A DNA stretch of 64,000 bases from Patescibacteria group bacterium. GTDB taxonomy: Bacteria; Patescibacteriota; Patescibacteriia; Magasanikbacterales; GWA2-37-8. The notes beneath the pieces were generated by a model. The model made no database searches. It had not been told where the DNA came from and worked only from the letters and a program-made list of their open reading frames with translations. Position 1 is the first letter of the stretch. Each line of letters starts with the position of its first letter. Below are positions 14,715 to 58,321 of this stretch, in pieces. The stretch is from assembly GCA_041661385.1 (NCBI GenBank), contig JBAZUP010000001.1, forward strand, positions 7,382 through 71,381. Direction: 5' to 3'. The position numbers were made by a program, and so were the translations under genes.

Positions 14715-14718
14715 TATT

Positions 14719-22724: not shown

Positions 22725-22954
22725 TTTATTTATTCAGGTATCCTCTCCCTCCCTGCAACAAAAAGATTTGTTACAGAGAGGGGAGGGAATACGTTATAAA
22801 CCCGAATCAGTTATAAATGTCGAGAGGTGAATAGTCACCTTGGCTGGTTCATTAGTAGTGGATATCGAAGGTCGCAAGGTTTTCGAGTCCGCTCCGCCCT
22901 AAATCGCGATTCCGTCCGGAAAAGCGGTTTGGAGTGATAATATTTATATTTATT

Positions 22955-30182: not shown

Positions 30183-30196
30183 TTAACCAATTTTTT

Positions 30197-31156: not shown

Positions 31157-32929
31157 ATGGCGGTTATGACTGGCGCGGAGGTGGTAGCAAATTTTTTAAA
31201 GAAAAATAAAATTTCTCATGTTTTTGATGTCGCGGGCGGCATGATTGCCTATCTTGAAGATGCGATCAGCCGGACTCCGGAAATTCAATGCTTGCCCAGC
31301 CGGCACGAACAAGCCAGCGGTTTTGCCGCCGAGGGCTATGCCCGGATAAGCAAAAATTTTGGTGTTGCTACGGCTACCAGTGGCCCCGGTGCCACCAATC
31401 TTATTACCGCCATTGGCAGTTGTTTTTTTGATTCGGTGCCGACCATGTATATTACCGGTCAGGTAAACACCAAAGATATCAAAAAAAACGCCAATATTCG
31501 GCAAAATGGATTTCAGGAAACGGATATCGTTTCGGTGGTAAAAACGCTTACGAAATACGCAAAACAGGTATTAAAGGTGGGTGATGTTTTGTACGAGCTT
31601 GAAAAGGCGCATTTTTTTATGAAATCAGGCAGGCCCGGACCCGTCTTACTTGATATCCCGATTGATCTTCAGCGTACTTCGTTGGAAATATCGAAGTTTA
31701 GAAAATTTTATGGCTCCCCAGAGCATAAAAAACTCCTCAAGAAATCCGTTGAACCGGGTCTAAAAAATAAAATTAAAAAACTTGAAAAGCTAATTAAGGA
31801 ATCTAGTGCCCCGGTAATCTTAATCGGCGGCGGCATTCAAATCTCTAACACCCAAAAGGAATTAGAAAATTTTGTAAAAAGAAATAATCTTCCGGTTGTC
31901 AGCTCGCTGATGGGTTTAGATTCTTTTCCCGGTTCCTCAGATGATTTTGTCGGTTTTATCGGCAGTTACGGAAATCGCGAGGCCAATATTGTATTTGCTA
32001 ATGCCGACCTGATTATTTCGCTTGGTTCGCGTTTGGATGTGCGGCAAATAGGCAACCCGGCGCTGTTTGCAACGCATGCTAAGGTAGTTCAAGTGGATAT
32101 CGATCCGTATTCTATAAACAACATTGTAAAATCTCACCTGTCATTTGGAATGGATTTGAGAAGTTTTTTTAATCTGGCCAAGAATTTAAGGGCGAATCCA
32201 AAAAACGCCTGGCGGTTTTTTATTCGCAGGGTAAAAGAAAACTTTTCAAAAAAGAGCGTCAAATCTAAACAAATCGATCCCAATACTTTTATATCCAAAT
32301 TATCAGCCGTCTCCGGTAGAGATGTTTCGGTTGTTTCCGATGTCGGTAACCACCAGATGTGGCTGGCACAATCTTGGAAAACCAAGCCTGGTCAGCGCCT
32401 GTTATTTAGCGGTGGCATGGGTAGCATGGGGTTTGCTTTGCCGGCAGCAATCGGGGCACACTTTGCTGACACAAACAAAACCGTGGTCGTACTTTGCGGC
32501 GATGGCGGGTTTCAAATGAATATTCAGGAGTTAGAAACTGTTCGGCACCAAAAAGTACCGCTTAAGATATTTATATTAAACAACCAGTCGCTCGGCATGG
32601 TCAAAGATTTTCAAACCACATACCTGAAGAGTAATTTTCAATCTACCGTAATTGGTTATTCAAATCCCAGTTTTAGGAAGATTGCCTCCGCCTACGAGCT
32701 GGATTATGTTTCTATTGACAGCGGTTTGAAAGAAATTGAATTTTCCAAAATTTTAAATTCAAAAAAAGCAGTTTTAGTTGAAGTTAAAATACCGTTTAAC
32801 ACCACCCTTGAACCAAAAGTAACTTTTGGAAACGCTCTCGATAACCAATATCCGTTTTTAAGTGAGGAAAAAATGAAATTACTACGGGCAATCAAGGCGG
32901 AGTTTGAAGTAACAAAAAAATCGGCTTAG
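31157..32929 (+). CDS. thiamine-diphosphate-dependent acetolactate-synthase-like enzyme (YerE-like candidate branched-sugar synthase)
   Basis: 590 aa TPP enzyme fold. N-terminal Pyr domain, central domain, C-terminal GDGGFQMNIQELET TPP-binding motif. Located inside the CDP-sugar operon. Confidence 0.75.
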   Translation: MAVMTGAEVVANFLKKNKISHVFDVAGGMIAYLEDAISRTPEIQCLPSRHEQASGFAAEGYARISKNFGVATATSGPGATNLITAIGSCFFDSVPTMYITGQVNTKDIKKNANIRQNGFQETDIVSVVKTLTKYAKQVLKVGDVLYELEKAHFFMKSGRPGPVLLDIPIDLQRTSLEISKFRKFYGSPEHKKLLKKSVEPGLKNKIKKLEKLIKESSAPVILIGGGIQISNTQKELENFVKRNNLPVVSSLMGLDSFPGSSDDFVGFIGSYGNREANIVFANADLIISLGSRLDVRQIGNPALFATHAKVVQVDIDPYSINNIVKSHLSFGMDLRSFFNLAKNLRANPKNAWRFFIRRVKENFSKKSVKSKQIDPNTFISKLSAVSGRDVSVVSDVGNHQMWLAQSWKTKPGQRLLFSGGMGSMGFALPAAIGAHFADTNKTVVVLCGDGGFQMNIQELETVRHQKVPLKIFILNNQSLGMVKDFQTTYLKSNFQSTVIGYSNPSFRKIASAYELDYVSIDSGLKEIEFSKILNSKKAVLVEVKIPFNTTLEPKVTFGNALDNQYPFLSEEKMKLLRAIKAEFEVTKKSA

Positions 32930-32931
32930 AT

Positions 32932-33825
32932 ATGTCTTTAAAAACTACCGTTTTTCTGGCAGGCGGATCAGGATTTATCGGCAAAAATATATTGGAACAG
33001 TTAGGTGATAAATATAATATTATCGCTCCGGACCGCGCTGAGCTGAATCTATTAGATAGCGAGGCCGTGCTGGATTTTTTTAAAAAAAATCCGGTTGATA
33101 TTGTCGTTAATTCAGCTGCGGAAGGAGTGTATATAAAAAACCGGATTGACCCGATGATAACTCTGAATAATTTAAAAATATTTTATAATCTTGTAAGAGC
33201 AAAAAAATATTTTAATCGAATGGTAATGCTGGGTTCAGGGGCGGAATATGATAAAAAACAGAATCTTAAAAAGACCTCGGAAAATGACTTTGATCGGACA
33301 GTTCCAGCCGATGAGTATGGCCTTTATAAATATATCTGCGCGAAATTCGCGGGCGAGGTAGACTATATTACCCATCTTCGACTATTTGGAGTTTTTGGAA
33401 AATATGAAAATTATGAGATTCGATTTATTTCCAATGCTATTTGTAAGGTGCTTTTTAATTTGCCGATTACCATACGGCAAGACGTAAAATTTGATTACAT
33501 ATTTATTGATGATTTTGTAAAAATTTTAGATCAAATTATCAAAAAAAAACCGGTGGAGAAATTTATTAATATTGGTAGAGGTGAGGATGTTAGTTTGAAA
33601 ACTCTCGCGGAAATGATTATCAAGGAAGTAGGTGTTAAGGTTCCGATTAAAATTTCCGAACCAGGTTTAGGCAATGAGTATAGTTGCAATAATTCCCGGT
33701 TGCTAAATGAGATGGAAATGATTGATTTTACTCCTTTTAGTGTTTCTATTTCAAACTTGGTGGAGTATTATCGTAAGATTTTGCCGACATTGAACAAAAA
33801 ATCATTTATTGATTATGAGAGATAA
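32932..33825 (+). CDS. NAD(P)-dependent sugar epimerase/reductase (extended SDR)
   Basis: Rossmann motif FLAGGSGFIGKNI. ~300 aa. Confidence 0.7.
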   Translation: MSLKTTVFLAGGSGFIGKNILEQLGDKYNIIAPDRAELNLLDSEAVLDFFKKNPVDIVVNSAAEGVYIKNRIDPMITLNNLKIFYNLVRAKKYFNRMVMLGSGAEYDKKQNLKKTSENDFDRTVPADEYGLYKYICAKFAGEVDYITHLRLFGVFGKYENYEIRFISNAICKVLFNLPITIRQDVKFDYIFIDDFVKILDQIIKKKPVEKFINIGRGEDVSLKTLAEMIIKEVGVKVPIKISEPGLGNEYSCNNSRLLNEMEMIDFTPFSVSISNLVEYYRKILPTLNKKSFIDYER

Positions 33826-34870
33826 TTTTAATAAAATTATTGATGAAGATTTAGCCTATATAATGAAAGCCGATTTGCCATGGCATGAATTGGAAGGAAA
33901 AAATATTTTAATCGCCGGCGCCAACGGTGCACTGCCGGCTTACATGGTGGAAACAATTTTATATCTGAACAAAAATTTGTTAAAAAATAAAGCGAAAATT
34001 TTTGCTTTGGTTAGAAATATTGAAAAAGCTCAAAAAAAATTTGGACGTCACAAAGACGATAAAAATTTGGAGTTTGTTATCCAGGACGTTTGTGACAAGA
34101 TAAATTTATCGAATGATTTAGATTACATAATTCATGCGGCAAGCCAGGCGAGTCCTAAATATTATGGCAGCGATCCGGTTGGGACACTTTTGCCAAACGT
34201 ACTTGGCACTTACAATCTTTTGGAATTAGCAAGAGAAAAAAGTCTGAAAGGTTTTATCTTTTTCAGCTCGGGGGCTGTTTACGGCCCAATTGGGGATAAT
34301 CAGCAGGCAAATAACGAAAAAAAATTTGGCATACTAGATCCGTTTACCATTGAATCTTGTTATCCGGAAAGCAAACGAATGGGTGAAAACATGTGCCAGG
34401 CCTGGCTTAGCCAGTACAAAATTCCTATCAAGGTGGTCAGACCATTTCATACCTATGGTCCGGGTGTTGGACTTAATGATGGACGGGTTTTTGCAGATTT
34501 TGTCCGTAATATAGTCAATAATGAAGATATTACTATGAATAGTGATGGAAGCGCAAAAAGAACTTTTTGTTATCTTGCCGATGCCGCAATCGCATTTTTT
34601 ACCGTGTTATTAAAAGGAAATATCGGTGAGGCTTATAACGTCAGCGGTGACAAATTGGTAAGTATTAGCGAGTTAGCCGGTACTCTGGTAAATATGTTTC
34701 CGGAGAAAAATCTAAAAATAAAAAGAAATGAAATTTTAGATAAAAATTATCTTAAAACCGCCGCTTCCGGGCATCTTCCGGATATCAGCAAAATTGTCGG
34801 ATTGGGGTGGAAGCCAGTTTATTCAATCGAGGAAGGCTTCAGGAGGATGATTAAAAGCTTTGAGCAATAA
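33809..34870 (+). CDS. NAD-dependent epimerase/dehydratase family protein
   Basis: ILIAGANGALPAY glycine-rich motif and YxxxK region. 353 aa. Confidence 0.7.
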   Translation: MIMRDNFNKIIDEDLAYIMKADLPWHELEGKNILIAGANGALPAYMVETILYLNKNLLKNKAKIFALVRNIEKAQKKFGRHKDDKNLEFVIQDVCDKINLSNDLDYIIHAASQASPKYYGSDPVGTLLPNVLGTYNLLELAREKSLKGFIFFSSGAVYGPIGDNQQANNEKKFGILDPFTIESCYPESKRMGENMCQAWLSQYKIPIKVVRPFHTYGPGVGLNDGRVFADFVRNIVNNEDITMNSDGSAKRTFCYLADAAIAFFTVLLKGNIGEAYNVSGDKLVSISELAGTLVNMFPEKNLKIKRNEILDKNYLKTAASGHLPDISKIVGLGWKPVYSIEEGFRRMIKSFEQ

Positions 34871-37923: not shown

Positions 37924-38042
37924 TTGATTTTACGCATAAATTAGCTAAAAAGTCAGGTTTAACCTTGATTTTTTTGCTATTTTAGGGTATTATTATTGGT
38001 CTTTTGGCCACTCTCGGCCGAAAGCAAACCAGGAGAGAATCC

Positions 38043-38627
38043 GTGAATTCCGAATCGCTGAACCAGCAGGTGTGGGTCGCCGTGACCAGACTCACCGCCC
38101 TTTTCAAGGGCGATCCAAACGGCGAGGAAGCTGTGAAGAATGCTTTGGCTCAGTTGCTCCGACTGGTGGATCCCTCGAAGCCCTACGGCACGGTGCTGTT
38201 TGACAGTCTCTCCAGGCTCACTTGGAGCATCGCCTTCGAGGGCGTTGCTCTCCGGTTGAATCCGAAGACCAAGAAGCCCGAGGTCTTCCTCAGGAAGCGT
38301 GCCGACGATGACACGGCCTATCCTGGGGAGTGGCATGCCCCCGGTTCGGCCTTCCGTCCCCGGGAGAAGCCAAACCTCGTCGCGAGGCGTCTCTCTCGTG
38401 AGTTCGGGTCCGAGATCATGGACTTCAAGCTGGTGGGGCAGTACTTCTCCAACGAGCAGAGAGGCGACTTCTTGTCGCTCATCTACCTCGTGAAGTTCGA
38501 CGGCGAGCCCCGCGTCGACAACCGGCACATCTGGTGTCCGGTCGACAAGCTGCCGGAGAATACGGTCAACATTCACCGGGATCACCTCATCCCGGCTGCG
38601 GTCGCTGCATATCGCTCGTCTCACTAG
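38043..38627 (+). CDS. Nudix hydrolase resembling GDP-mannose mannosyl hydrolase (Gmm/NudD/WcaH), encoded in GC-rich island 2
   Basis: ~60% GC with GC3 periodicity on the + strand. AGGAGA SD 6 nt before GTG 38043; the track's TTG is at 38004. Modified Nudix box GEWHAPGSAFRPREKPNLVARRLSREFG aligns position-by-position with the Gmm box [29 protein letters not shown]. Confidence 0.5.
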   Translation: MNSESLNQQVWVAVTRLTALFKGDPNGEEAVKNALAQLLRLVDPSKPYGTVLFDSLSRLTWSIAFEGVALRLNPKTKKPEVFLRKRADDDTAYPGEWHAPGSAFRPREKPNLVARRLSREFGSEIMDFKLVGQYFSNEQRGDFLSLIYLVKFDGEPRVDNRHIWCPVDKLPENTVNIHRDHLIPAAVAAYRSSH

Positions 38628-38647
38628 GCTATCGTTCTTTTCCGGCC

Positions 38648-38694
38648 AAAGCGCCCTATCCCATACTCTTCGGAGTTAATAGATAGGGCGCTTC
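38648..38694 (+). terminator. long-stem hairpin after the Nudix gene (putative terminator)
   Basis: aaagcgccctatc ...21 nt... gatagggcgctt, a 12-bp stem. No strong T-run. Confidence 0.4.
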
Positions 38695-38777: not shown

Positions 38778-40085
38778 ATGGAAGAATCGCTAAAAAATGA
38801 GCTATTAAAGGCCTATAAAGCCAAATTTATCCGAAAGCCGTTTGTGCCCGGTGAATCATCGGTTCCGGTATCCGGTAAGGTTTTTGACGAAGAGGAAATT
38901 ATCCTGGCCACCGAAGCGGTTTTAGACGGTTGGTGGACTGAAGGACGGTTTACAACCCTTTTTGAACACAAAATTTCCAAGTGGCTCGGGGTAAATTATG
39001 CATCACTAGTAAATTCAGGATCATCTGCTAATTTGGTTGCTCTCATCGCCTTAACTTCTATAAAATTAGGCGACAAAAGACTCAAACCCGGTGATGAAGT
39101 GATTACCGTCGCGGCGGGTTTCCCGAGTACCGTAACACCCATTATTCAAAACGGACTCACTCCGGTTTTTGTAGACGTTGATTTAGGTACATACAACATC
39201 AATATTGAGGCGATGAAAAAGGCTCTGTCGGTAAAAACCCGGGCGGTTATGGTCGCACATACGCTCGGTAATCCATTTGATTTGAAAGAAGTAAAAAGTT
39301 TTTGCGAAAAAAATGATTTATGGTTGATTGAAGATGATTGCGACGCACTTGGGGCAAAATTTAGTGGAAAACACACCGGCACGTTTGGTCATATTGCTAC
39401 CTGCAGTTTTTATCCTGCCCACCATATTACCATGGGGGAGGGTGGTGCGGTTTTTACCAATGACCCGAAGCTTTTTAAAATTATTGAATCAGTCCGTGAT
39501 TGGGGGCGCGATTGTTGGTGCGAACCCGGCAATGATAATACTTGCCAAAAACGCTTCGGCTGGAAATTGGGTGAATTACCGGAAGGGTACGACCACAAAT
39601 ATATTTATTCGGAAATCGGTTATAATTTAAAGCTTACCGATATGCAGGCGGCGATTGGTCTTGCTCAATTTGATAAACTGGACAGTTTTATTGCAAAACG
39701 AAAAGAAAATTTTAAAATTCTTTACGAAGGATTAAAAAAATACGGCCAATATTTTATTTTGCCGGAGTGGTTGTCGGAATCCGACCCAAGCTGGTTTGGT
39801 TTTTTGCTCACCGTAAAAAACAATGCGCCATTTAAACGCGGGGAAATTGTTAAATTCCTTCAGGACAAAAAAATTGCCACCAGATATCTTTTTGCCGGTA
39901 ATTTACTTCGTCAACCCTCTTTTGTAGACCGGAAGCCGGATTATCGTGTAGTTGGTAACCTGGAAAATACCGATATTATTATGAATAATACTTTTTGGAT
40001 TGGGGTTTACCCTGGTCTGACAGCGGAAATGCTAAATTATGTGGTTAGTTGTTTTTCAGTGTTTATAGAGCAATTAAAGGGTTAG
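38778..40085 (+). CDS. rfbH: CDP-6-deoxy-D-xylo-4-hexulose-3-dehydrase (E1, PMP-dependent, DegT family)
   Basis: 435 aa. Active-site His replaces the usual Lys ([14 protein letters not shown]). Fe-S cysteine cluster [14 protein letters not shown]-terminus like RfbH. Confidence 0.85.
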
Positions 40086-40089
40086 TAGA

Positions 40090-41613
40090 TTGTATATGTT
40101 ACAGGTTAATAAATTTTACATAATATATTCATTAAACTGGCTGACGTTGGCGGTTATTTCTGTTTTTCAATATCCAATGTTATTTAGTAAATCCTGTTTT
40201 TTTCAAAAGAATTGGTTATTTTGCGCTGAAAATGTTACAGGCAGTAGCAAGTTTATCGATATTTTTATAATCTCGATATTTTTTATAAATTTATTTTTAA
40301 GCGGTATATTTTGTTGGAAGGTTTTTAAGAAAGAATATATTATTAAAAATAATATAAAATATTTAATAATTGGCTTGTCTTTGCTGTTGCCGATTTTTAT
40401 ATTTCCTTTCGGATCTGGTGATATGACCCACTATTTTAGCTCGGGTAAAGCAGCATCAGGGGGGATAAATTTATATTCCAGCCAGTGGAATTGGGAAAAG
40501 GATTATAACAATTCGCAAGTAGTTGAAATTTTGGCCGGGTATTCATACGGGCCAATTGTTTTGGATATATTAAATATATTTTATAAATTAAGTAATAATA
40601 AAATATATACATTCATATTGTTTTGGAAAATATTTATGGTCGGTGTAGTTGCGCTTTGCGGGTATTTAATAAAATATATAATAAAAATGATTGTCCCAAG
40701 CGCAAGCTTAAATAATTTTTATATTTTTTGGTTCACCCAACCAATTTTTTTATTTGAATGTTTGGTCGATGGTCATTTTGATATTTTGTGGCTTGTATTT
40801 CTTTTGTTAGCTATTATTTTTGCTCACCATAATAAATGGTGGTTAGTTTTTCCGCTTTTGGCAATAGGGGTTTGGATTAAATTTATACCAATTTTAGTTG
40901 CTCCCTGGTTTTTATTGTGGTGGTGGCAAAAAACAAACCGACTAAATTGGAAAAGCAACACAGTGAATTTGTTTGTTGGTTCAATTTTGACGATTTTATT
41001 AACAATCGGTGTTTGGTATAAATACTGGGTAGGATTTAGTGTTTTTAATTTTATTATATTGCAATCTAAGTGGGCTATTTCAAGTATATTTTCAGTAGTT
41101 TATTATAGTTTCCTGCCATTCTTCAAAAATATTTTTGGTACCAATTACCATTGGTATTTAACTCGGTTTGCCCACGCAGTTGTACTTGTTGCGTTTATAT
41201 ATTTATTAGTTCCTTTAATAAAAAATATTTTTAAAATATTTTTAAAAAAACAAACTTTTTCAACTTCACAATATATCGTTTCAATTTTTATAAGTTTATT
41301 TTCATATTTAGTAATCTGGCAAAAATCTATTTGGCCTTGGTATTTTGTATGGATTTTGCCGCTTGGTTTAATTGTTTATTTTATCAGTAGAAATTTATAT
41401 TTAGAAAAATTATTAATTTGGCTTGGAACGGCACCCCTAATTTCCTACATCGTTTGGTTTATAAATTGGCAATTAATTCATACAGACGCTTTTGGTGAAT
41501 ATTGGTATTTCTGTTTTACCGTTTTTTTTGTAACTGGGTATCCATTGTATAATTTTATTAAATGGCGTAAGCAAGGGTATTCAGATGTTTTAGATAATGT
41601 TAATAATATATGA
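40090..41613 (+). CDS. polytopic membrane protein, putative GT-C glycosyltransferase or Wzy-like polymerase
   Basis: 507 aa, >12 hydrophobic segments, Trp/Tyr-rich loops. No soluble domain. Confidence 0.4.
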
Positions 41614-42635
41614 AAAAAGCGCTAATCACCGGTATTACCGGACAAGACGGATCATATTTGGCGGAATTTCTTTTGTCAAAAGGTTACGAAGTCCATGGAA
41701 TTATCCGCCGTTCCAGCAGTTTTAATACGGGCCGGATTGACGGAATATTTCAGGATCCGCACGCCGAGCGGCCAAAAATGATTTTGCACTATGGCGATTT
41801 GACAGACGGCAGTAATTTGAACCGCATTCTCGAAAAGGTAAAGCCCGATGAGATATATAATCTGGGCGCACAGAGTCATGTGTTGGTCAGTTTTGAAATG
41901 CCGGAGTATACCGGAGAGGTGGATGGGTTAGGTACGCTGCGACTACTCGATGCAGTAAGAGAAACCGGTCTCAAGGTTAAATTTTATCAGGCCGGATCTT
42001 CGGAAATGTTTGGTAAGGTTTTGGAAACTCCTCAAAAAGAAACCACGCCCTTTTATCCGCGCAGCCCTTATGGCTGTGCCAAAGCCTACGCTCATTATTT
42101 GGCGGTTAATTATCGCGAGGCATACAACATGTTTATTTGTAACGGTATCTTATTCAATCACGAATCTCCCCGCCGCGGTGGAACTTTTGTCACCAAGAAA
42201 ACTGTAGCTGCCCTCGCAAAAATAAAAGCCGGCAAGCAGGACAAGCTTTACCTAGGAAATTTGGAGTCCAAACGCGATTGGGGTTATGCGAAGGAATATG
42301 TTGAAGCGATGTGGGCCATGCTTCAGCATACCAAGCCGGCTGATTATGTAATTGCGACCGGCGAAACCCACAGTGTGCGGGAGTTGGCAGAAATTGCGGC
42401 AAAATATTTTGGTTTCGAATTGGTCTGGAAAGGTGAAGGACTGAACGAAAAGGGGGTTGATAAAAAAACCGGTAAAACAATCATTGAAATTGACCCGCAT
42501 TATTTCCGTCCCACCGAAGTCGATTATTTGATTGGTGATGCTTCAAAAGCAAAGAAAGAATTAGGCTGGGAAGCCAAAGTTAAATTTAAAGAGTTAATAG
42601 AAATAATGTGCAGGGAAGAAATGGAAAAAGTATGA
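41610..42635 (+). CDS. gmd: GDP-mannose 4,6-dehydratase
   Basis: [46 protein letters not shown], near-canonical GMD N-terminus. 341 aa. Confidence 0.95.
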
Positions 42636-43798
42636 TCAAACTTATCAAATCAACCTTTTTTCACGAATCAGAAGTGAAAGAAAAATTGGTAGATTTTATC
42701 CGCAGCGCCGATGTGTTGAGCATGGGTGCGAATTGTTTTTTGTTTGAAAAACAATTTTCAGCGAAGCAACAGCGCCGTAACGCGGTTTTCGTGAGTAGTG
42801 GCAGTATGGCCAATCTGGTCTTGGTTCAGGCTTTACTTAATCTAGGCCGACTGAAAAAAGGGGACAGGGTGGGAGTTTCGGCGCTTACCTGGTCGACCAA
42901 CGTTATGCCTATTATTCAGCTTGGACTTGAACCGGTAATTTTGGATGTTGAACTAAACAACTTAAATACTTCCTTAAAGATTTTGAAGGAGACCCATAAA
43001 AAAACTAAACTCAAAGCTCTATTTTTAACTAATGCGCTTGGTTTTTCTGCCGACATTGATTCAATTAAGGAATTTTGCAATCAGGAAAAAATTATATTTT
43101 TGGAAGATAATTGTGAAGCACTCGGCTCAAAGGTAGATGGTAAATTGTTGGGTAATTTTGGTTTAGCTTCAACTTTTTCCAGTTTTGTTGGCCATCATTT
43201 TTCCACCATTGAAGGAGGTATGATTTGTACCGACGACGATGAATTGCACCAAATGTTGCTTATGGTTCGGGCGCACGGCTGGGACCGTAATTTAAACGAA
43301 GAACAACAAACAAAGTTAAGGAATGCGAATAAAGTCGACGATTTCTACGCCCGTTATACATTTTATGACTTGGCGTACAATGCGCGGCCGACCGAAATTC
43401 AAGGGTTTATCGGTCAAAGTCAGCTTGTTTATTGGGATGAAATTGTTTCAAAACGGGAGTCGAATTTTAAAAGTTTTACCGGAGCGGTAAAAAATAATAA
43501 AGATATTATTCCGTTGGAAATTTCTCACCTGGATTTAGTTTCAAATTTCGCCATGCCGCTGGTATTTAAAACCAATAAATTATTTTTAGAGTATAAAGAC
43601 AAATTTATTAAGTCAAATGTTGAAATCCGGCCAATCATCGCCGGCAATATCAGCAACCAGCCATTTTTTAAGAAATATATTAAACAAAGTTTTTCTTGTC
43701 CTAACGCCGAATATATTCACAAAAATGGCTTTTATTTTGGCAACAACCCGGAGATGACTGAAGCGGAAATGAGCGAGCTTTGTGGTTTAATCAGATAA
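42632..43798 (+). CDS. colD: GDP-4-keto-6-deoxy-D-mannose 3-dehydratase (ColD-like, DegT family with His in place of PLP-Lys)
   Basis: 388 aa, ATGA overlap with gmd. Active-site region [15 protein letters not shown] has His-His where aminotransferases have Lys. Confidence 0.7.
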
Positions 43799-43801
43799 CA
43801 T

Positions 43802-44749
43802 ATGGAAAAAAGTTCTAAAATTTATATTGCCGGACATCGAGGCATGGTGGGCTCAGCGATTGTCCGGAAGCTGCAAGTGGCCGGTTATACTAATTTAGTT
43901 TTAAAAACTCACCAGGAATTGGATTTACTGAATCAAACTGAAGTAAGAAAGTTTTTTGAAAAAGAAAAACCGGAATATGTGGTTGTGGCGGCGGCCCGGG
44001 TCGGCGGAATTGCAGCGAATATGGAAAAGCCGGCTGAATTTTTGTTTGAAAATCTGCAGATTCAAAATAATATTATCTGGTCAGCCCACGAAGCTGTAGT
44101 AACAAAATTATTATTTTTGGGTAGTAGTTGTATCTATCCGCGGGAATGCTTTCAGCCAATGAAGGAAGAGTACTTTATGACCGGCCCAGTTGAGCCCACC
44201 AACGAAGGGTATGCAATAGCCAAAATCGCCGGTATCGAATTGTGTCGTTCTATTTCGGCCGAGTTTAATCAGGATTTTATTTCTTGTCTACCAACCAATA
44301 TTTATGGCGAGAATGACAATTTTGATCCCGAATCTTCTCACGTTGTACCCGCCTTAATTAGAAAGATTCATGACGCGAAAGTTAATCAGCAGAATGAATT
44401 GGTTGTTTGGGGCACGGGTAAGGCAAGGAGAGAGTTTATGCACGTAGACGATTTAGCGGAGGCTTGCCTATTTTTGCTGGAAAATTTTTCTGCCAGAAAT
44501 CAGAAAGTGCCGTTTGTTAATATTGGTACCGGTGAGGATGTTTCTATAAAAGAACTTGTAGAAAAACTGTCAAAAGTTATTGGTTATGAAGGTAAAATAA
44601 TGTGGGATCATAGTAAACCCGATGGTATGCCGAGAAAACTACTTGAGGTTAGCAAGCTTAGTAAGCTTGGTTGGAAGTATAAAACCAATCTTGATGATGG
44701 ACTGTCGTTGATATATCAATGGTATTTAGAAAATATTTATGGAAAATAA
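43802..44749 (+). CDS. fcl: GDP-L-fucose synthase family (GDP-L-colitose synthase ColC candidate)
   Basis: IYIAGHRGMVGSAIVRKL N-terminus. 315 aa GDP-fucose-synthetase fold. Confidence 0.85.
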   Translation: MEKSSKIYIAGHRGMVGSAIVRKLQVAGYTNLVLKTHQELDLLNQTEVRKFFEKEKPEYVVVAAARVGGIAANMEKPAEFLFENLQIQNNIIWSAHEAVVTKLLFLGSSCIYPRECFQPMKEEYFMTGPVEPTNEGYAIAKIAGIELCRSISAEFNQDFISCLPTNIYGENDNFDPESSHVVPALIRKIHDAKVNQQNELVVWGTGKARREFMHVDDLAEACLFLLENFSARNQKVPFVNIGTGEDVSIKELVEKLSKVIGYEGKIMWDHSKPDGMPRKLLEVSKLSKLGWKYKTNLDDGLSLIYQWYLENIYGK

Positions 44750-45521
44750 ACCGTTAGTATCAGTAATAACTACCAGTTTTAATTCAGAAAAAACAATCAG
44801 ACAAACGATTGAGTCGGTTTTGCATCAAACTTATTCCAACATTGAGTATATTATTATTGATGGAAAATCATCGGATCATACAATTGATATTGTCAGGGAG
44901 TACGAGCCAAAGTTTAACGGCCGGATGAGAGTGATATCAGAGAAAGATGATGGAATATATTTTGCATTAAATAAGGGTTTGGGAGTAGCTAAAGGAGAAT
45001 TAGTAAGTTTCGCAAATAGTGATGATTGGTACGAACTAAATGCTGTAGAACAAGCCGTCCGGGTTCACCAAAAGGACCCCGAGGCATTTATCTACGGAAT
45101 TTTAAGATATATTCAAGATGGAAAAGTGTTACAAATATCTACTGGTAGTCATGAATTTTTACCTGGCGCGCTTATACCATATCCGACCTGGTTTGTGCCG
45201 ATGTATTTGTTTAAAAAGCACGGTCTTTTTGAAACTAAATATCGGATCGGTTCAGATGTTGATTTGGTTTTAAGATATTTTAAAAACGGCGTTAAATTTT
45301 ATCGCATTGATTCAATTTTATCAAACTTTAGAACCGGAGGAGAGTCTGACAAACATGTTAACTTATCACGAATTGAGGTTTTAAAATCAATGTGTGAATT
45401 AGGTTATATTTCTAAGAATAAATTATTGTACAACGTGACTTTATTAAAATTAACCACAATTAAAGAAAGAATGTTTAATAAAATCCGGTCATTTGTTGTT
45501 AAAATTGTTAAATATGATTAA
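44739..45521 (+). CDS. glycosyltransferase family 2
   Basis: LVSVITTSFNSEKTIRQTIESVLHQTY and DGKSSD/DxD motifs. Confidence 0.8.
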   Translation: MENKPLVSVITTSFNSEKTIRQTIESVLHQTYSNIEYIIIDGKSSDHTIDIVREYEPKFNGRMRVISEKDDGIYFALNKGLGVAKGELVSFANSDDWYELNAVEQAVRVHQKDPEAFIYGILRYIQDGKVLQISTGSHEFLPGALIPYPTWFVPMYLFKKHGLFETKYRIGSDVDLVLRYFKNGVKFYRIDSILSNFRTGGESDKHVNLSRIEVLKSMCELGYISKNKLLYNVTLLKLTTIKERMFNKIRSFVVKIVKYD

Positions 45522-45526
45522 GAAAT

Positions 45527-46825
45527 ATGAATATTTTTTCAGATATTAAAGATTTTTTAAAAACCAGAACCCTTCGAGAGAGTAGCTATGTTTTTGTTGG
45601 TTCGGCAATTAATGGTGTTTCACTGTTTGCTATTAATGTTTTTTTGGGGAACAGATTCTCCAAGGAATGGTTTGGTACGTTTTCACTCATTATTGTTGTT
45701 TTGGCTGTAGTTTCAGAATTATCAGATTTTGGTTTAAATGGGGGGATGATGAGGTTTGCTCCTTACTATATAGGTTCGGGGGAAAATGATAAATTTTTAA
45801 AATTAGTTAAGGTTGTTTGGGGGTGGCGTGTAAAAATTTCTTCAGTATTAACAATTGGCGGCATAATTTTTGCTTATCCGCTATCTCGATATGTTATTGG
45901 CCAGCCACAGATCGCAAGTTATTTAGCCTTTTCCTTTTTGGGTATCGGCGGCGTAATTTTACTTGGTTTCATTAGTTCATATTTACAAGTGCAGCAAAAA
46001 TTTTTACTCAATTCCTTTTTGCAAGTATTAAAAGGTGTTGGCAAGCTGGTCTTAATAGCTTGTTTAATGTTTTTCGGTTTTAGCAATCTCTATCCGTATA
46101 TATCTATTTATATAATAGTTCCTTGGTTTTTAGTTTTTTCTTTCTTTATTTTGAAACCTGACAGTTTTTTAAAAATACACACTACCAAAGAAGAAAAATC
46201 AGAGATAAATATTCGACTCGGTAAATTCGGCTTTTGGCTTGCTTTGAATTCCGTTTTTATGATTATTGCTGGCAAGGTTGATCAGATTATGGTAAGTCGG
46301 ATTTTAGATCTAGAAAAGCTTGCCACCTTCTCCATTGCAATGCAATTTTTATATTTTTATAGTTTAGTTCTTGGCTCAATAAGTTCAGTTATAACTCCCA
46401 AGATTAACTCCTTAAGGAATAAACTAGAATTGATAAGTTATATTAAAAAAAGTTATCGTATTTTAATTCCGGTATTTATTGTTGCGCTGTTTTTGATATT
46501 TCCTACAAAATACTTGATAATTTTATTTTTTGGACAAAAATATTTAGACGCGATTCCAATATATCTAATTTTAAGCTACAGCACACTCTCGAGCTTAATT
46601 TTTTTACCATTTAGCTTGGTACTGCTCGCTTATTCCAAGACAAAATTAATTGCTTTGTCCGGCTTTTTGCAGTTTATAATAAATTTGGCATTGAATTGGT
46701 TTTTTATTCGAACTTTTGGCCTGGTGGGTGCCGCCATATCATATGGTATATCTGTAATATTATTTAACTTGTATAACGTATTTTGGTCTTTATATTTGTT
46801 AAAATACAGAGAAATTATTGTTTAA
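45527..46825 (+). CDS. wzx: Wzx-like oligosaccharide flippase (MOP superfamily polysaccharide biosynthesis protein)
   Basis: 432 aa, ~12 TM. Architecture of polysaccharide biosynthesis protein/Wzx. Confidence 0.7.
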   Translation: MNIFSDIKDFLKTRTLRESSYVFVGSAINGVSLFAINVFLGNRFSKEWFGTFSLIIVVLAVVSELSDFGLNGGMMRFAPYYIGSGENDKFLKLVKVVWGWRVKISSVLTIGGIIFAYPLSRYVIGQPQIASYLAFSFLGIGGVILLGFISSYLQVQQKFLLNSFLQVLKGVGKLVLIACLMFFGFSNLYPYISIYIIVPWFLVFSFFILKPDSFLKIHTTKEEKSEINIRLGKFGFWLALNSVFMIIAGKVDQIMVSRILDLEKLATFSIAMQFLYFYSLVLGSISSVITPKINSLRNKLELISYIKKSYRILIPVFIVALFLIFPTKYLIILFFGQKYLDAIPIYLILSYSTLSSLIFLPFSLVLLAYSKTKLIALSGFLQFIINLALNWFFIRTFGLVGAAISYGISVILFNLYNVFWSLYLLKYREIIV

Positions 46826-48463: not shown

Positions 48464-49801
48464 ATGATTGATAAAATTAGCGTTGCTTCCCTCGCCAGCG
48501 ATATGGGTATAGGGGGAGTCGCGAGAGAAATAGTTACAATAAACAAGAATCTGAATAAGGAATTCTTTAATCATTTTGTAATTTCAATGGGACCAAGAGA
48601 CGATGTCCGGTCGAAATATATTGATGAAGATAAAATTTTTTTTATTTCTAATCCCAAAGAAATAAGCCAAATATTGGAAGAAAATAAGATTAATGTTTTG
48701 TATGCGCACAGACATGGCAGAAACGAGGCAATCTACGACGCAATTGCCAAGGAAATTAGCGATAATGTAGCGCTTTTGGAAATGAATACCTTTAGTGTAT
48801 TGGACAAAGGATTTTTTGGCCAGCGATGTGAAAAACATGTTTTCGTTAGTCGGACTAATTTGTTAAAATATTGCGTCCAAAACAATATAAATTTTGATTT
48901 TAAAAAACTCAAGACGGTTTTTGGGTTGGTTGATTGTAATCGTTGGTTAGAAAATGTGCCTACAGAAACAGAGGTAAAAGAGTATAAAGAGAAACTGGGC
49001 CTGGAAGGAAATTTTGTGGTGGGTAGGGCGGCTAGACCGGTAATGGGAAAATGGGACGATGAGATGTTGGTAATGTGGAAAAGGCTTAGCAAGATGAACA
49101 ACAAAATTAAATTTTTAATTTATGGGGTTCCAGAGGAGCGAAAGCAATTGCTAATGGCTGCTGGCAAGGCCGAAAATTTGATAATGCTTGAACCAACATC
49201 TTCGGATAAAGAACTTAGACTTTTTTATTCTGCAATCGATGTCTTCGCTCATGATAGTAGGCTTGGGGAATGCGCCTGTGCAACAATTGCGGAGGCGATG
49301 CTTTTTAAAAAGCCGGTTGTAGTCAAATCTACTCCATTTCCTAGATTTACGTTGGGAAGAAGTCATACAAATGATAATGGTCAAATAGAGCAGATTAAAA
49401 ACGGAGAAAATGGCTATGTGGTTGTCGGTGGAGTTGCCATGGCCGAAGCGATTAACTATTTATATAACCACCAAGAAGAAGCCATACAGATGGGGGAAAA
49501 AAATAATAGAGAAGTTTTAGATAAATATAATGCCAAAATAGGCATAAAAACCTTTGAAAAAATATTTATTGATAGTGTTTTAGATAAAAAAATTGACGTA
49601 GCGTCTAATATTTTCGCCTATTACAATTCCAATAATTTTTTTCCGGACGAACACAGTACGAGAGACTGGTTTAAGGAATATTATAGGCGGCTTGAAGATA
49701 TCTTCGGTAAGGAGTATTCTAGTTCTGTCTCGGAAAAATGTTTGTTGTATTATTTGAAATATAAGAGAAAATTTGAAACATTGCTAAAAAAAGTACTATG
49801 A
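48464..49801 (+). CDS. putative glycosyltransferase (GT4-like GT-B fold)
   Basis: C-terminal region ATIAEAMLFKKPVVVKSTPFP resembles the GT4 nucleotide-sugar binding motif. 445 aa. Confidence 0.45.
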   Translation: MIDKISVASLASDMGIGGVAREIVTINKNLNKEFFNHFVISMGPRDDVRSKYIDEDKIFFISNPKEISQILEENKINVLYAHRHGRNEAIYDAIAKEISDNVALLEMNTFSVLDKGFFGQRCEKHVFVSRTNLLKYCVQNNINFDFKKLKTVFGLVDCNRWLENVPTETEVKEYKEKLGLEGNFVVGRAARPVMGKWDDEMLVMWKRLSKMNNKIKFLIYGVPEERKQLLMAAGKAENLIMLEPTSSDKELRLFYSAIDVFAHDSRLGECACATIAEAMLFKKPVVVKSTPFPRFTLGRSHTNDNGQIEQIKNGENGYVVVGGVAMAEAINYLYNHQEEAIQMGEKNNREVLDKYNAKIGIKTFEKIFIDSVLDKKIDVASNIFAYYNSNNFFPDEHSTRDWFKEYYRRLEDIFGKEYSSSVSEKCLLYYLKYKRKFETLLKKVL

Positions 49802-50517
49802 AAGCGATGATTTTGGCTGCGGGCGAGGGGGTCCGACTTCGCCCCCTTACAAACAATATTCCTAAAGTAATGGTCAAAATTGATGGTAAACCTCTTTTGG
49901 AACACAATGTGAATTTAGTCCGTAGTTATGGGGTGCGGGAGATAATTACCAATGTTCATTACAAGCCAGAAATTATAAGTAATTATTTTCAAGACGGAGA
50001 CAAGTTTGGCGTATCTATTTTCTATTCTAAAGAAAAAGAACTCCTGGGCAGTGCCGGCGGAATAAAAAAGGTTGCCAACAAATTAAATAAAACGTTTTTT
50101 GTTTTGTATGGTGACAACTTAAGCAACTGCAACCTAAAAGATCTTCTCACAACTCACAAGAAGAATAAAACTATTTGTACCCTAGTAATTTTTGATAAGA
50201 TTAAGAATAAAAACACTGGTAAAGGTGGAGGTAGAATTTTGTTAAATAAGGATAAAACAGTTAGACAATTTATTGAGAATGGAGAAGAAATCAGTAATTT
50301 TTGCAATGCGGGAATCTATGTGCTTGAACCGGAAATATTTAAGTATATTCCTAATGGAAAAAAATTTGATTTTGGTAATGATGTTTTCCCTTTGCTTCTG
50401 AAGCGCAATATTAAAATAGGTACCTACAAATTAGGTAAAAAAGGGTATCTTTATGCGTGTGATACTATGAAGTACTACCGACAAACACAAGATTTTTTTA
50501 AACATAATGTATTATAG
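49798..50517 (+). CDS. sugar-1-phosphate nucleotidyl(guanylyl)transferase
   Basis: MILAAGEGVRLRPLTNNIPKVMV NTP-transferase motif. Paralog of 55356-56078. Confidence 0.8.
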   Translation: MKAMILAAGEGVRLRPLTNNIPKVMVKIDGKPLLEHNVNLVRSYGVREIITNVHYKPEIISNYFQDGDKFGVSIFYSKEKELLGSAGGIKKVANKLNKTFFVLYGDNLSNCNLKDLLTTHKKNKTICTLVIFDKIKNKNTGKGGGRILLNKDKTVRQFIENGEEISNFCNAGIYVLEPEIFKYIPNGKKFDFGNDVFPLLLKRNIKIGTYKLGKKGYLYACDTMKYYRQTQDFFKHNVL

Positions 50518-50591
50518 GGGCTTTGCCCATATAAACTCATTCGTTTGAAAATATTTCAGCAAGCTAAATATTTTACTCACTCATTTCGTTT
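50513..50591 (+). promoter_or_regulatory. conserved inter-operon element, copy 2
   Basis: tataggggctttgcccatata palindrome + ttttactcactcatttcgtttATG leader, matching 29322-29396. Confidence 0.4.
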
Positions 50592-51584
50592 ATGATTTTA
50601 ACCAGAACGCCACTGAGAATTCCTCTCGGCGGAGGGGGGACCGACCTTCCGACTTTTTATCAACAGCACGGTGGATTTGTGTTTAGTGCAGCTATTGATA
50701 AGTATATGTACATAAGCATTGTTCGGCCAATTTTGGATTCGTTAGTTCGTATCAAATATTCGCGCACCGAGGTTGTAGAAAATGTGACACAGGTGAAGAA
50801 TCAGTTGGCACAAGCAGCTTTGGAATATTATGGAATCAAAGATAAAATTGAAATTACATCAACGGCCGATGTGCCGGCGGGGACGGGAATGGGTTCGTCT
50901 GGGTCATATTTGGTTGGGCTTTTAAAAGGACTCCAAGCATTAACGCGCCAGAGTTCCAGTGTTCAAGAGTTGGCGGAATTGGCTTGCCATATTGAAATTG
51001 ATTTATTGCGCAAACCCGTCGGTAAACAGGATCAATATTTAGCTGCGTATGGTGGTTTTACGGTACTGAATATAGATAAAAATGGGTTAGTGCAGGTCTC
51101 GGAGGCAGCCGTATCTCATGAAATAGCCGAAGAATTGCAGAGTAAATTATTATTATTTTTTACCGGCATAACTCGTGATGCTATGGTTATTCTGAGCGAG
51201 CAAGGTGTTGCGGTAGAAAAAAAAGAAAGCGATGTTACAAAATCTTTGTTGCGGATTAAGGAAATTGGTCTGGAAATAAAAAGCTCCATCGAAGCTGGAA
51301 ATTTGGATAATTTTGGCAGATTAATGGATGAGCATTGGAAGGTGAAAAAAACCATGTCCACAAAAATGTCTGATCCAAACATGGATAGGCTTTATGAATT
51401 AGCCAAAGAGCGAGGAGCTTTGGGTGGTAAAATTATGGGGGCGGGCGGCGGCGGATTTTTTGTATTTTATTGTCCAGGAGAAAAAGAGAAAAAAGGTGTA
51501 CGTGATATTATGAAGTTAAATGGTCTGGTGGAAATGCCGTTTAGTTTTGAAAAAGAGGGGGCAAAAACGCTGGTCGGTTTTTAA
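50592..51584 (+). CDS. hddA: GHMP-family sugar kinase (D-glycero-alpha-D-manno-heptose 7-phosphate kinase HddA-like)
   Basis: PLRIPLGGGGTDLPTFY N-terminus and GMGSSGS ATP motif. Neighbourhood with gmhA/gmhB/hddC. Confidence 0.7.
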   Translation: MILTRTPLRIPLGGGGTDLPTFYQQHGGFVFSAAIDKYMYISIVRPILDSLVRIKYSRTEVVENVTQVKNQLAQAALEYYGIKDKIEITSTADVPAGTGMGSSGSYLVGLLKGLQALTRQSSSVQELAELACHIEIDLLRKPVGKQDQYLAAYGGFTVLNIDKNGLVQVSEAAVSHEIAEELQSKLLLFFTGITRDAMVILSEQGVAVEKKESDVTKSLLRIKEIGLEIKSSIEAGNLDNFGRLMDEHWKVKKTMSTKMSDPNMDRLYELAKERGALGGKIMGAGGGGFFVFYCPGEKEKKGVRDIMKLNGLVEMPFSFEKEGAKTLVGF

Positions 51585-51607
51585 TTTAATCCTAGTAGTT
51601 TTGTTAT

Positions 51608-52357
51608 ATGAAAGAGAATAAACCTTATTCTGCGGAATACGCAAACAACATGGAGCTTCGCCGGTATTTCTCTGACCTTGCCTTGAGTCATTTAAGTTTA
51701 ATTAGATTACATAGCGAAAGCGGGCATTTGCCTAGCCTGAAAAATTTAACGCCGGAACAGATAGTGGCAAATATTGAATCAAGCGGACAAGAAGATTGGT
51801 CAAATGTGGTACGGCATTGCTTGGCTGAAGCTGGCGCGGCAGACGCCTTGGCAAATTTATTAGGTTTGTCTGAAGAAGAAAAAGAAGATTTGGTTCAGGC
51901 GGCTATTTTGCATGATTTTGATAAAAGAATTGAAATAGAAACTCTAAGTGGTACTCAGGGAAAATATACGCAGGCCGCGGCAGAGTTTAAATTGGTAAGC
52001 AAGGAAACTTTGCAAAAGAAAGGAATAAAACCGGAAATTATTAATATTATTAACGTGATTGGCGATGTTGATGGTATTCAAAACGAAAATACAAATTTGT
52101 CGCAGAAAATCATGTTTTACATTGACAATATTACCGATGAGACTAATTTGGTAGGTGTAAAAGTTAAGCGTGGCCGCCTAGTTAAACGCTATCCAAAATT
52201 TGCTGAAGAAAATGAATATATGGATAAATGGGTGAGCAGCACCGAAGCGGTGCAGAAAGAGCTTGCCGAGAAGATAGGTTTACCCAACCCAGAAGAATTA
52301 CCCGATTTTATTTTAACAAAAATCAAGCAGTTGGCCGCAGAACAATCTCATAAATAA
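51608..52357 (+). CDS. HD-domain protein (putative metal-dependent phosphohydrolase)
   Basis: H...HD metal motif (VVRHCLAEAG ... AAILHDFDK). Confidence 0.4.
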   Translation: MKENKPYSAEYANNMELRRYFSDLALSHLSLIRLHSESGHLPSLKNLTPEQIVANIESSGQEDWSNVVRHCLAEAGAADALANLLGLSEEEKEDLVQAAILHDFDKRIEIETLSGTQGKYTQAAAEFKLVSKETLQKKGIKPEIINIINVIGDVDGIQNENTNLSQKIMFYIDNITDETNLVGVKVKRGRLVKRYPKFAEENEYMDKWVSSTEAVQKELAEKIGLPNPEELPDFILTKIKQLAAEQSHK

Positions 52358-52372
52358 GCTTGATAATAAAAG

Positions 52373-52399
52373 CGCGAGATAGGGAGGACCTATCTCGCG
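52373..52399. terminator. bidirectional terminator hairpin between convergent genes
   Basis: cgcgagatagg-gagga-cctatctcgcg, an 11-bp stem. Confidence 0.6.
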
Positions 52400-52407
52400 T
52401 ACTACAT

Positions 52408-53943: not shown

Positions 53944-54104
53944 GGCTATCTCCTTGTTGTGAAGGTTGTTTCGATTGTATGTTGGTTTTTAGTAAAAGTC
54001 AAGGGTAATACCCCGCCTGAATTTAAATTCCAAATTGTCAAATTTAGGGTCAGTTTTTAGCTTATTTATCAGAAAAGACAATTTATTGGTACAAGTATTT
54101 TTTA

Positions 54105-54133
54105 TTGACTTTTTTGACTAAAAAAGTTATATT
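54105..54133 (+). promoter_or_regulatory. sigma70 promoter for the gmhA operon (TTGACT-17 nt-TATATT)
   Basis: TTGACT at 54105-54110, TATATT at 54128-54133, ~40 nt upstream of the gmhA ATG. Confidence 0.5.
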
Positions 54134-54173
54134 AGTATTGATTAAAATAGTTGTATTTTCTTTAAAGAAGCTT

Positions 54174-54779: not shown

Positions 54780-54781
54780 TT

Positions 54782-55351: not shown

Positions 55352-55355
55352 TTTT

Positions 55356-56078: not shown

Positions 56079-56088
56079 TTGAAATTTC

Positions 56089-57054: not shown

Positions 57055-57071
57055 TCTATGTTATATATAAT

Positions 57072-58169: not shown

Positions 58170-58321
58170 TGGTCGGTGGTTCATTTGCAAAAGCTGGGAG
58201 TTCTGCTAGAATTCATTCCAAAGGACAAACCGAAAAAAACTAAAATGTTGAATCTTGCGAAAAGTGTATTAATTATTAGTAATAGGAATACCTTAGAAAA
58301 ATATTTAATTAATAATTTTGT

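Follow-up and report, generated by a model that had tools for sequence, protein, structure and literature searches.

A gmd-colD-fcl-like gene trio in a Candidatus Magasanikbacteria surface-glycan locus is a probable GDP-L-colitose branch

The 64-kb stretch of DNA analyzed here (the window) is from a metagenome-assembled genome (MAG) of Candidatus Magasanikbacteria and contains three consecutive, intact genes whose products are a GDP-mannose 4,6-dehydratase (Gmd), a ColD-type sugar 3-dehydratase and an Fcl-family epimerase/reductase (Table 1). The initial annotation, made from the letters alone, had described the host as like the Candidate Phyla Radiation (CPR), which is correct, as the source belongs to the Patescibacteria/Parcubacteria group. 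It had also noted an ATGA overlap between gmd and the following 388-residue DegT-family gene, and this is present at 42632-42635, where the four nucleotides hold the gmd stop and the colD start. The fcl-like gene begins after a gap of 3 nt and overlaps a glycosyltransferase (GT) gene of family GT2 by 11 nt, while upstream the gene for a 507-residue membrane protein overlaps gmd by 4 nt. Based on the junctions of -4, +3, and -11 nt we expect these genes to be expressed as a single translationally coupled operon. A promoter and terminator scan of the region from 37.5 to 47 kb returned nothing informative in such AT-rich DNA. We consider that the three-gene operon is probably the GDP-L-colitose branch of a large surface-glycan locus.

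Table 1. Positions of the trio and of neighboring glycan genes in the 64-kb window, with the basis of each assignment
Feature	Position	Strand	Basis or remark
gmd, gene for a GDP-mannose 4,6-dehydratase	41610-42635	+	Intact open reading frame, 341 aa
ColD-type sugar 3-dehydratase dependent on pyridoxamine 5'-phosphate (PMP), candidate GDP-4-keto-6-deoxy-D-mannose 3-dehydratase	42632-43798	+	Intact, 388 aa from ATG
Codons His188-His189, site of the aminotransferase Schiff-base Lys	43193-43198	+	Alignment to ColD
Fcl-family epimerase/4-reductase, functional ColC candidate	43802-44749	+	Intact, 315 aa
507-aa membrane protein, MptA_B-like GT-C glycosyltransferase by homology	40090-41613	+	PF26314 in relatives
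GT2 glycosyltransferase	44739-45521	+	Directly downstream of fcl
Wzx/MOP flippase	45527-46825	+	After the GT2 gene
E1 (RfbH/DdhC-type CDP-6-deoxy-L-threo-D-glycero-4-hexulose 3-dehydrase)	38778-40085	+	NF011936, 706 bits (cut-off 423)
Glucose-1-phosphate cytidylyltransferase-like	29397-30182	+	TIGR02623, 267 bits, best match, below cut-off 300
CDP-glucose 4,6-dehydratase-like	30149-31150	+	TIGR02622, 199 bits, best match, below cut-off 278
Acetolactate-synthase-like thiamine diphosphate (ThDP) enzyme, candidate for YerE-type C-branching	31157-32929	+	PDB match and context
Extended short-chain dehydrogenase/reductase (SDR) 1, candidate YerF-like reductase/epimerase	32932-33825	+	Pfam Epimerase, 86 bits
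Extended SDR 2, candidate YerF-like reductase/epimerase	33809-34870	+	Pfam Epimerase, 138 bits

The product of the middle gene matches the Pfam family DegT (PF01041, 189 bits). Its best matches in the PDB were the four entries for Escherichia coli O55 ColD (217 bits, 3e-63), followed by the 3-dehydrase E1 (130 bits) and a putative nucleoside diphosphate-sugar 3-dehydratase (118 bits); PseC-type transaminases and perosamine synthase scored 81 and 75 bits, respectively. In the HMMER alignment the first histidine of a His-His pair is placed on His188 of E. coli ColD, a catalytic column that was fixed by the ColD mutant chains 3b8x (H188N) and 2r0t (H188K). The pair reported by the initial annotation at the position of the lysine that binds pyridoxal 5'-phosphate (PLP) is therefore the His188 equivalent. 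It is retained in all 120 of the homologs retrieved and is invariant in a 27-sequence alignment, and a lysine at the Schiff-base position was found in none of the alignments and in none of the 120 homologs. Based on the presence of His-His in every homolog, it is neither a chance substitution nor a sequencing error. Both observations that would have pointed to an aminotransferase, a conserved lysine and a closer relationship to perosamine synthase than to ColD, are absent.

The initial annotation had further taken the histidine to be the hallmark of ColD. It does indicate a dehydratase rather than an aminotransferase, and is ColD-like, but it is not specific for ColD, since the replacement of lysine by histidine is common to E1, SpnQ and ColD (PMC8987622) and is also seen in the window's own E1. 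ColD is singled out by its missing iron-sulfur (Fe-S) cysteines, by its closer similarity to the window protein and by the linkage to gmd and fcl.

What sets ColD apart from E1 and SpnQ is that it is without their four-cysteine [2Fe-2S] motif (PMC8987622). The DCxC...TC segment of E1, with its three clustered cysteines, is missing from the window protein, which in a four-way alignment has the same eight-residue deletion as E. coli ColD, and no CxC...C cluster occurs in any of the 120 homologs. Arg219 of ColD is retained in the window protein at a position where E1 has one of its cluster cysteines, and the equivalents of Asn248 and Arg331 are conserved throughout the alignment. Residue 187 is Gly and not the Asn of aminotransferases, so there is no pointer to transaminase activity at this position. 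An AlphaFold2 model of the protein (predicted local distance difference test score 89.4, predicted template modeling score 0.89) gave the same picture in Foldseek, where the 12 best matches were all ColD chains (template modeling scores of 0.86-0.89, E-values of about 1e-34 to 1e-32), followed by E1 (1e-28 to 1e-27) and then by transaminases and perosamine synthase. We are highly confident in assigning the product of the middle gene as a sugar 3-dehydratase of the ColD type that works independently of Fe-S. Its predicted activity is the deoxygenation of GDP-4-keto-6-deoxymannose at C3 with glutamate-driven recycling of PMP.

The assignment of the first gene is straightforward. Gmd scored 564 bits against TIGR01472, well above the curated NCBIfam cut-off of 415, and shares 59% of its residues with E. 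coli Gmd. Against solved Gmd structures it scored 475 bits, and against the Campylobacter GDP-heptose 4,6-dehydratase (7us5) only 117 bits. Judged by its sequence, the window's 4,6-dehydratase is a canonical Gmd and not a heptose-type enzyme.

The third protein scored 462 bits against NF047922, the Fcl equivalog model, for which the cut-off is 500 bits. It shares the motifs GSSCIYP, YAIAKIAG, and SSHVVPA with both E. coli Fcl and E. coli ColC; these contain the Ser/Tyr/Lys triad of extended SDRs and the Cys and His residues of epimerization, whose roles are known from E. coli GDP-fucose synthase. As the chemistry of ColC (epimerization at C5 and reduction at C4) is a subset of that of Fcl, the Fcl-like protein plausibly performs the ColC function.

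Thousands of relatives of the ColD-like protein exist. The best 120 are 58-100% identical to it, and most of them belong to Patescibacteria, Peregrinibacteria, WWE3, Microgenomates, and Parcubacteria. A scan of genome contigs relied on exact peptide patterns and gave only 13 loci, so that the linkage counts come from a small sample. Linkage was compared in 13 distinct loci (designated here by L numbers) with ColD-like proteins at least 49% identical to that of the window. In 12 of these 13 loci gmd and/or an fcl-like gene directly adjoins colD, the exception being L018. Nine of the linked loci are from CPR genomes (L001, L003, L005, L007, L008, L012, L022, L023, and L024) and the others are from a Ferruginibacter, a member of the Polyangiaceae and a proteobacterium; Peregrinibacteria, WWE3, Saccharimonadales, and Moraniibacteriota are among the lineages represented. 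This recurrent linkage to the GDP-mannose pathway, seen whether or not E1 is encoded nearby, is our best reason for taking the product of Gmd to be the substrate of the ColD-like enzyme.

In the databases these relatives are named only "DegT aminotransferase" or, by the Joint Genome Institute (JGI), CDP-sugar 3-dehydrase. The same applies to the characterized system: in E. coli O55:H7 CB9615 (L021, 3702-5788) the Prokaryotic Genome Annotation Pipeline (PGAP) names ColD a "DegT/DnrJ/EryC1/StrS family aminotransferase" and the authentic ColC a "GDP-L-fucose synthase family protein." No ColD- or ColC-specific model was among the NCBIfam matches to the window proteins. With such generic names and no specific model matched, the pathway goes unrecognized in MAG annotations.

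Two of the linked loci have additional features. In L001 (4992-11069, on a 963-kb Patescibacteria contig) a class-I methyltransferase gene lies between gmd and colD, and colD is separated from fcl by the gene for a 654-residue B12-binding radical SAM enzyme; these insertions suggest a C-methylated derivative of a 3,6-dideoxy sugar. In L024 the trio and an ABC transporter are followed by a GT11 gene (14270-15142; Glyco_transf_11, the alpha-1,2-fucosyltransferase family). The E. coli O55 colitose cluster also has a gene annotated as an alpha-1,2-fucosyltransferase, and a GT11 enzyme beside the trio fits the transfer of an L-fucose-like sugar.

The pathway we propose uses mechanistic steps drawn from PMC8987622 and PMC10440746. 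Gmd would oxidize and dehydrate GDP-D-mannose to GDP-4-keto-6-deoxy-D-mannose, with which the ColD-type enzyme would form a PMP-sugar Schiff base and, with His188 as the acid/base, expel the 3-hydroxyl. Hydrolysis of the enamine would release GDP-4-keto-3,6-dideoxy-D-mannose and ammonia, and PMP would be regenerated from L-glutamate, so that no Fe-S cluster or reductase partner would be needed. This corresponds to the known behavior of ColD, in which the aminohexoseen intermediate is resolved by hydrolysis and PMP is regenerated by glutamate, an E3-type reductase being unneeded (PMC8987622). The Fcl-type SDR would then epimerize C5 and, using NAD(P)H, reduce C4, which would yield GDP-L-colitose (3-deoxy-L-fucose), a donor that may be used by the adjoining GT2, Wzx, and GT-C machinery. 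The sequence analysis shows the enzyme families, the residues of the active site, the missing Fe-S motif and the conserved linkage of the genes. We infer the exact substrate (a hexose), the stereochemistry of the product and the dependence on glutamate, and we think it likely that the product made by the trio from GDP-mannose is GDP-L-colitose.

A number of observations weigh against this assignment. The ColD-like protein is only 35% identical to authentic E. coli O55 ColD, which branches outside the CPR clade in a simple neighbor-joining (NJ) tree that has no bootstraps and few characterized references; based on this identity and placement, orthology with a characterized ColD is not demonstrated. 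Residue 187, which is Gly in the window protein and its CPR relatives, is Ser in E. coli ColD and Ala in E1 (a ColD S187N/H188K double mutant exists, PDB 3gr9), and the His loop (residues 187-192) is the sole low-confidence part of the AlphaFold2 model. Genes for manB, manC, and pmi were not recognized in the window, and our comparisons of its only two small nucleotidyltransferases did not separate ManC from HddC. Compared with the true E. coli Fcl the third protein gives 50% identity and 340 bits, but with the authentic ColC of E. coli O55 only 40% and 237 bits, E. coli ColC and Fcl being themselves 39% identical; the references are the Fcl of the colanic-acid cluster and the ColC-ColD pair beside gnd, all from E. 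coli O55:H7 CB9615. In the NJ tree the ColD-linked Fcl-like proteins of CPR, Ferruginibacter, and Polyangiaceae group beside E. coli Fcl, with E. coli ColC outside. As far as its sequence allows, the third protein thus is outside the enterobacterial ColC lineage and it may retain GDP-fucose synthase activity too. Its earlier description as a ColC candidate holds in the functional sense, for an Fcl-family enzyme, but not in the sense of a nearer relationship to ColC. The same similarity, along with the 462 bits on the Fcl model and the GT11 "fucosyltransferase-family" gene of L024, would suit an Fcl-type enzyme with full GDP-L-fucose synthase activity. The locus would then mainly supply GDP-L-fucose, or GDP-fucose mixed with GDP-colitose, and the ColD-like enzyme would divert only part of the flow. 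Sequence gives no measure of relative flux, but we regard such an output as unlikely because the -4 and +3 nt junctions point to production in stoichiometric amounts with ColD, a waste if the locus served to make fucose, because the Fcl score is under the equivalog cut-off, and because the E. coli O55 colitose cluster likewise has only an Fcl-family reductase beside ColD. Far less probable is that the DegT homolog is a 4-aminotransferase resembling perosamine synthase, or an inactive pseudo-enzyme, with a GDP-4-amino-4,6-dideoxy sugar or plain GDP-fucose as the output of the locus. The DegT fold and the public name "DegT/DnrJ/EryC1/StrS aminotransferase" agree with an aminotransferase, but the Schiff-base lysine is found in 0/120 homologs, perosamine synthase scores 75 bits versus 217 for ColD, and the name carries no information because authentic E. 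coli ColD is given the same one by PGAP. The strong conservation of the protein (68% mean column identity) argues against a decaying gene.

The remaining alternative is a GDP-3,6-dideoxy-heptose, as produced in Campylobacter jejuni HS:5 and HS:11. There, the heptose C3-dehydratases are ColD homologs, 62-67% identical to it, which use PLP and glutamate (PMC10440746), and because of this identity the sequence of a 3-dehydratase cannot alone exclude a heptose. Also counting toward a heptose, and against colitose, is a set of HddA/GmhA/GmhB-like genes 5-12 kb downstream of the trio. Its kinase is HddA-like (172 bits) and its isomerase GmhA-like (55 bits), and GmhB (153 bits), the two small nucleotidyltransferases and a transaldolase-like gene complete it; manB and manC were not found in the window. 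All of the heptose-gene matches in the window are, however, below the curated cut-offs, and Gmd is canonical (475 bits to solved Gmds, 117 to heptose dehydratase 7us5). The Campylobacter route has a separate C5-epimerase and C4-reductase (PMC10440746), whereas the window has a single Fcl-type enzyme, and no separate epimerase was found in family scans of the cluster. Furthermore, most relatives have gmd-colD-fcl without heptose genes in view, and the heptose-linked ColD-like loci L014-L017 encode a distant ColD-like protein (34% identity) and no canonical Gmd. A heptose product is therefore improbable in our view, and GDP-L-colitose remains our preferred assignment.

The heptose-like region itself deserves description. 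It starts with a small nucleotidyltransferase (49798-50517) and the HddA-like kinase (50592-51584), continues with the GmhA-like SIS protein (54105-54779), GmhB (54713-55351) and the second nucleotidyltransferase (55356-56078), and ends with a transaldolase/FSA-like gene (58322-59044); a Gfo/Idh-type oxidoreductase and a DAO-type flavin adenine dinucleotide oxidoreductase are also encoded within 49798-59044. The region is a possible GDP-heptose toolkit, as predicted from these family matches. A B12-binding radical SAM gene (52408-53943, 49% GC) lies on the opposite strand to the heptose-like genes. In L014 (4187-13401), and also in L015-L017, all from Rhodocyclales MAGs, the distant ColD-like protein has kept His-His, and the gene order in L014 is ABC exporter, HddA, Fcl-like, a transketolase split into N and C halves, ColD-like, HddC, GmhA, and a divergent SDR. 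The L014 locus resembles a dideoxy pathway that starts from a GDP-heptose and includes C-branching of the transketolase type, and we could match it to no characterized pathway.

Upstream of the trio is a second, CDP-linked sugar route. Its E1 gave 570 bits and 62% identity to Yersinia E1 and keeps His-His along with cysteines in EDDCDALG and DCWC...TC. An identity of 62% to E1 of Yersinia pseudotuberculosis is remarkably high for a CPR protein compared with that of a gammaproteobacterium. In addition to the enzymes listed in Table 1, the CDP block holds an FkbM methyltransferase, a PgfS-like GT2 and an acyltransferase. The two-route architecture is kept in L022 (52-79% identity gene by gene; 77% for SDR 2) and in L001.

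The ThDP enzyme of this block has 5ahk as its best PDB match (382 bits), with genuine acetolactate synthases scoring no higher than 314 bits. 5ahk is probably the YerE homolog of Pseudomonas protegens. The gene is inside the CDP-sugar block, and its position is kept in L001 and L022. CPR genomes are generally reported to be without branched-chain amino-acid synthesis; for this reason, and because the gene is embedded among CDP-sugar genes, the enzyme is most simply seen as YerE-like. CDP-4-keto-3,6-dideoxyglucose receives from YerE an acetyl branch that is derived from pyruvate, after which the reductase YerF acts (PMC12247030, PMC9306805).

No plant-type ferredoxin motif, as expected for the E1 partner E3 (DdhD/AscD), was present in any frame of the 64-kb window, and FNR-like and Fer2 domains were absent from family scans of most window open reading frames of at least 100 residues. 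Nor was an E3 reductase present in those parts of L001 and L022, both syntenic, that were retrieved. With no E3 in the window, E1 would have to draw its electrons from an unlinked donor, as SpnQ does (PMC8987622), and its 62% identity to the Yersinia protein together with the missing partner would be explained by horizontal transfer and a generic electron donor, or by an E3-independent mode of action. The initial annotation had proposed that the locus makes two distinct 3,6-dideoxyhexoses. The CDP route is real, given the 706 bits for E1, but the lack of E3 and the presence of a YerE-like ThDP enzyme make a branched, yersiniose-like product likelier than a plain 3,6-dideoxyhexose. We give an even chance to the proposal that the route ends in a YerE-branched sugar; such a sugar would probably be C4-branched and 3,6-dideoxy.

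Between the acyltransferase gene and E1 there is a sharply bounded island of about 650 bp (37980-38650) with about 60% GC (78% GC at third codon positions; GC3 0.78) in a genome of 39.5% GC. Each strand of the island contains an open frame (38004-38627, +; 37977-38624, -), and the former has a weak NUDIX match (27.5 bits). We rejected this frame as a Gmm-type GDP-mannose hydrolase, as it does not resemble the Gmm that is encoded beside gmd in E. coli and was matched in neither NCBIfam nor Rfam. The island is possibly a recent foreign insertion.

Among the known systems closest to the trio is the colitose pathway of E. coli O55/O111 and Y. pseudotuberculosis (Gmd, ColD/ColA, ColC/ColB), which uses the same three families in the same chemical order. 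The trio has in common with the E. coli genes the DegT fold, His for Lys, the missing Fe-S cysteines and the Arg219, Asn248, and Arg331 equivalents, as well as adjacent dehydratase and reductase genes and an ATGA-type overlap. It differs in the ColD identity of 35%, in a reductase that is nearer Fcl, and in having no manB, manC, or gmm beside it; the gene order is gmd-colD-fcl in the window, while the E. coli genes are split around gnd. CPR bacteria are generally regarded as being without an outer membrane, which makes it improbable that the window sugar belongs to an O-antigen.

The initial annotation considered two such sugars in one locus to be rare even among enterobacterial O-antigens. 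This claim is weak, as the O unit of Y. pseudotuberculosis O:6 already pairs L-colitose with yersiniose A (PMC5399914). In O:6 a GDP-colitose branch is combined with a CDP-4-keto-3,6-dideoxyglucose branch that a ThDP enzyme (YerE) and a reductase (YerF) extend, and the window encodes the same enzyme types; unlike O:6, it has no E3 (DdhD/AscD), and its ThDP enzyme is assigned by similarity and context. Compared with O:6 the window also has FkbM and TylF methyltransferases and an acyltransferase, which suggests further decoration. C. jejuni HS:5/HS:11 resembles the window in using a ColD homolog, which depends on PLP and glutamate and acts on a GDP-4-keto-6-deoxy sugar, and in the presence of GDP-heptose-type genes. 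Its heptose 4,6-dehydratase is a distinct enzyme, and its C5-epimerase and C4-reductase are separate; their counterparts in the window are a canonical Gmd and one fused enzyme of the Fcl type. The E1/E3 systems (DdhC/DdhD, AscC/AscD) and SpnQ have the same superfamily and Lys to His replacement as the window's ColD-like protein, which differs from E1 in being without [2Fe-2S] cysteines and in scoring only 130 bits to it (217 to ColD). E1 and SpnQ need an electron donor and ColD does not (PMC8987622). Another host-dependent bacterium in which colitose and heptose modules are paired is Candidatus Organicella extenuata, a reduced-genome verrucomicrobial symbiont for which ColD, ColC, GmhA, HddA, and HddC have been annotated (PMC8204192) in a MAG-based reconstruction. 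It is from a different phylum, is a diderm with lipopolysaccharide and has no reported CDP/E1 route.

No link between colitose and CPR/Patescibacteria was found among the best-ranked papers of a full-text search. The suggestion of the initial annotation that the pathway is not described for such bacteria therefore probably stands, with the qualification that the trio is common across CPR lineages under generic names and occurs outside them as well. The trio is a useful re-annotation of known families and involves no new chemistry.

The genes flanking the trio fit a surface-glycan context. The 507-residue membrane protein has no Pfam match of its own but is 52% and 37% identical to PF26314-bearing proteins of L022, L001, and L024, and the GT2 and Wzx genes after fcl are also kept in L001 and L022. 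Near the start of the glycan genes are a gene for a 1,229-residue protein (22934-26623) whose N-terminus resembles a signal peptide, in which Thr+Ser make up 23% and which has no Pfam domain, and one for a 687-residue protein (27253-29316) with Wzy_C (O-antigen-ligase-like) and TPR domains, which the glycan genes follow directly. Both proteins are kept in L024 (29-5956; 60% and 49% identity) beside gmd-colD-fcl. In L023 (1322-7188) the Wzy_C/TPR protein is kept (48% identity) and a 1,226-residue LTD-domain protein is at the matching upstream position, but no similarity between it and the 1,229-residue window protein was detected. It is possible that the Thr/Ser-rich protein and the Wzy_C/TPR protein are a glycoprotein substrate and its oligosaccharyltransferase. 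A glycan containing L-colitose, a yersiniose-like sugar and possibly a heptose would then be built on a polyprenyl carrier and flipped by Wzx. That the trio is a module of a conserved CPR surface-protein glycosylation island, whose glycan is transferred onto the Thr/Ser-rich protein, is a proposal we consider doubtful. Two further genes, both on the reverse strand near the start of the window, are unusual for bacteria: a eukaryote-type pyrimidine 5'-nucleotidase (8427-9314; UMPH-1, 190 bits) and an Elp3-like protein (9336-10964) that contains the domains Radical_SAM, Radical_SAM_C, and GNAT.

The trio exposes a gap in annotation, in that the label "DegT aminotransferase" hides a ColD-type 3-dehydratase. 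As the enzymology is already well understood, the gain is for annotation and for the glycobiology of an under-studied group. L-colitose is otherwise known mainly from the O-antigens of enteric and marine Gram-negative bacteria, and our assignment predicts that it is displayed by many CPR lineages. The surface structures of CPR/Patescibacteria are almost uncharacterized, though these cells live attached to hosts. If the glycosylation proposal were true, these ultra-small episymbionts would have a highly variable, deoxysugar-rich coat, and the insertions in the trio of L001 would imply C-methylated 3,6-dideoxy sugars that are still undescribed.

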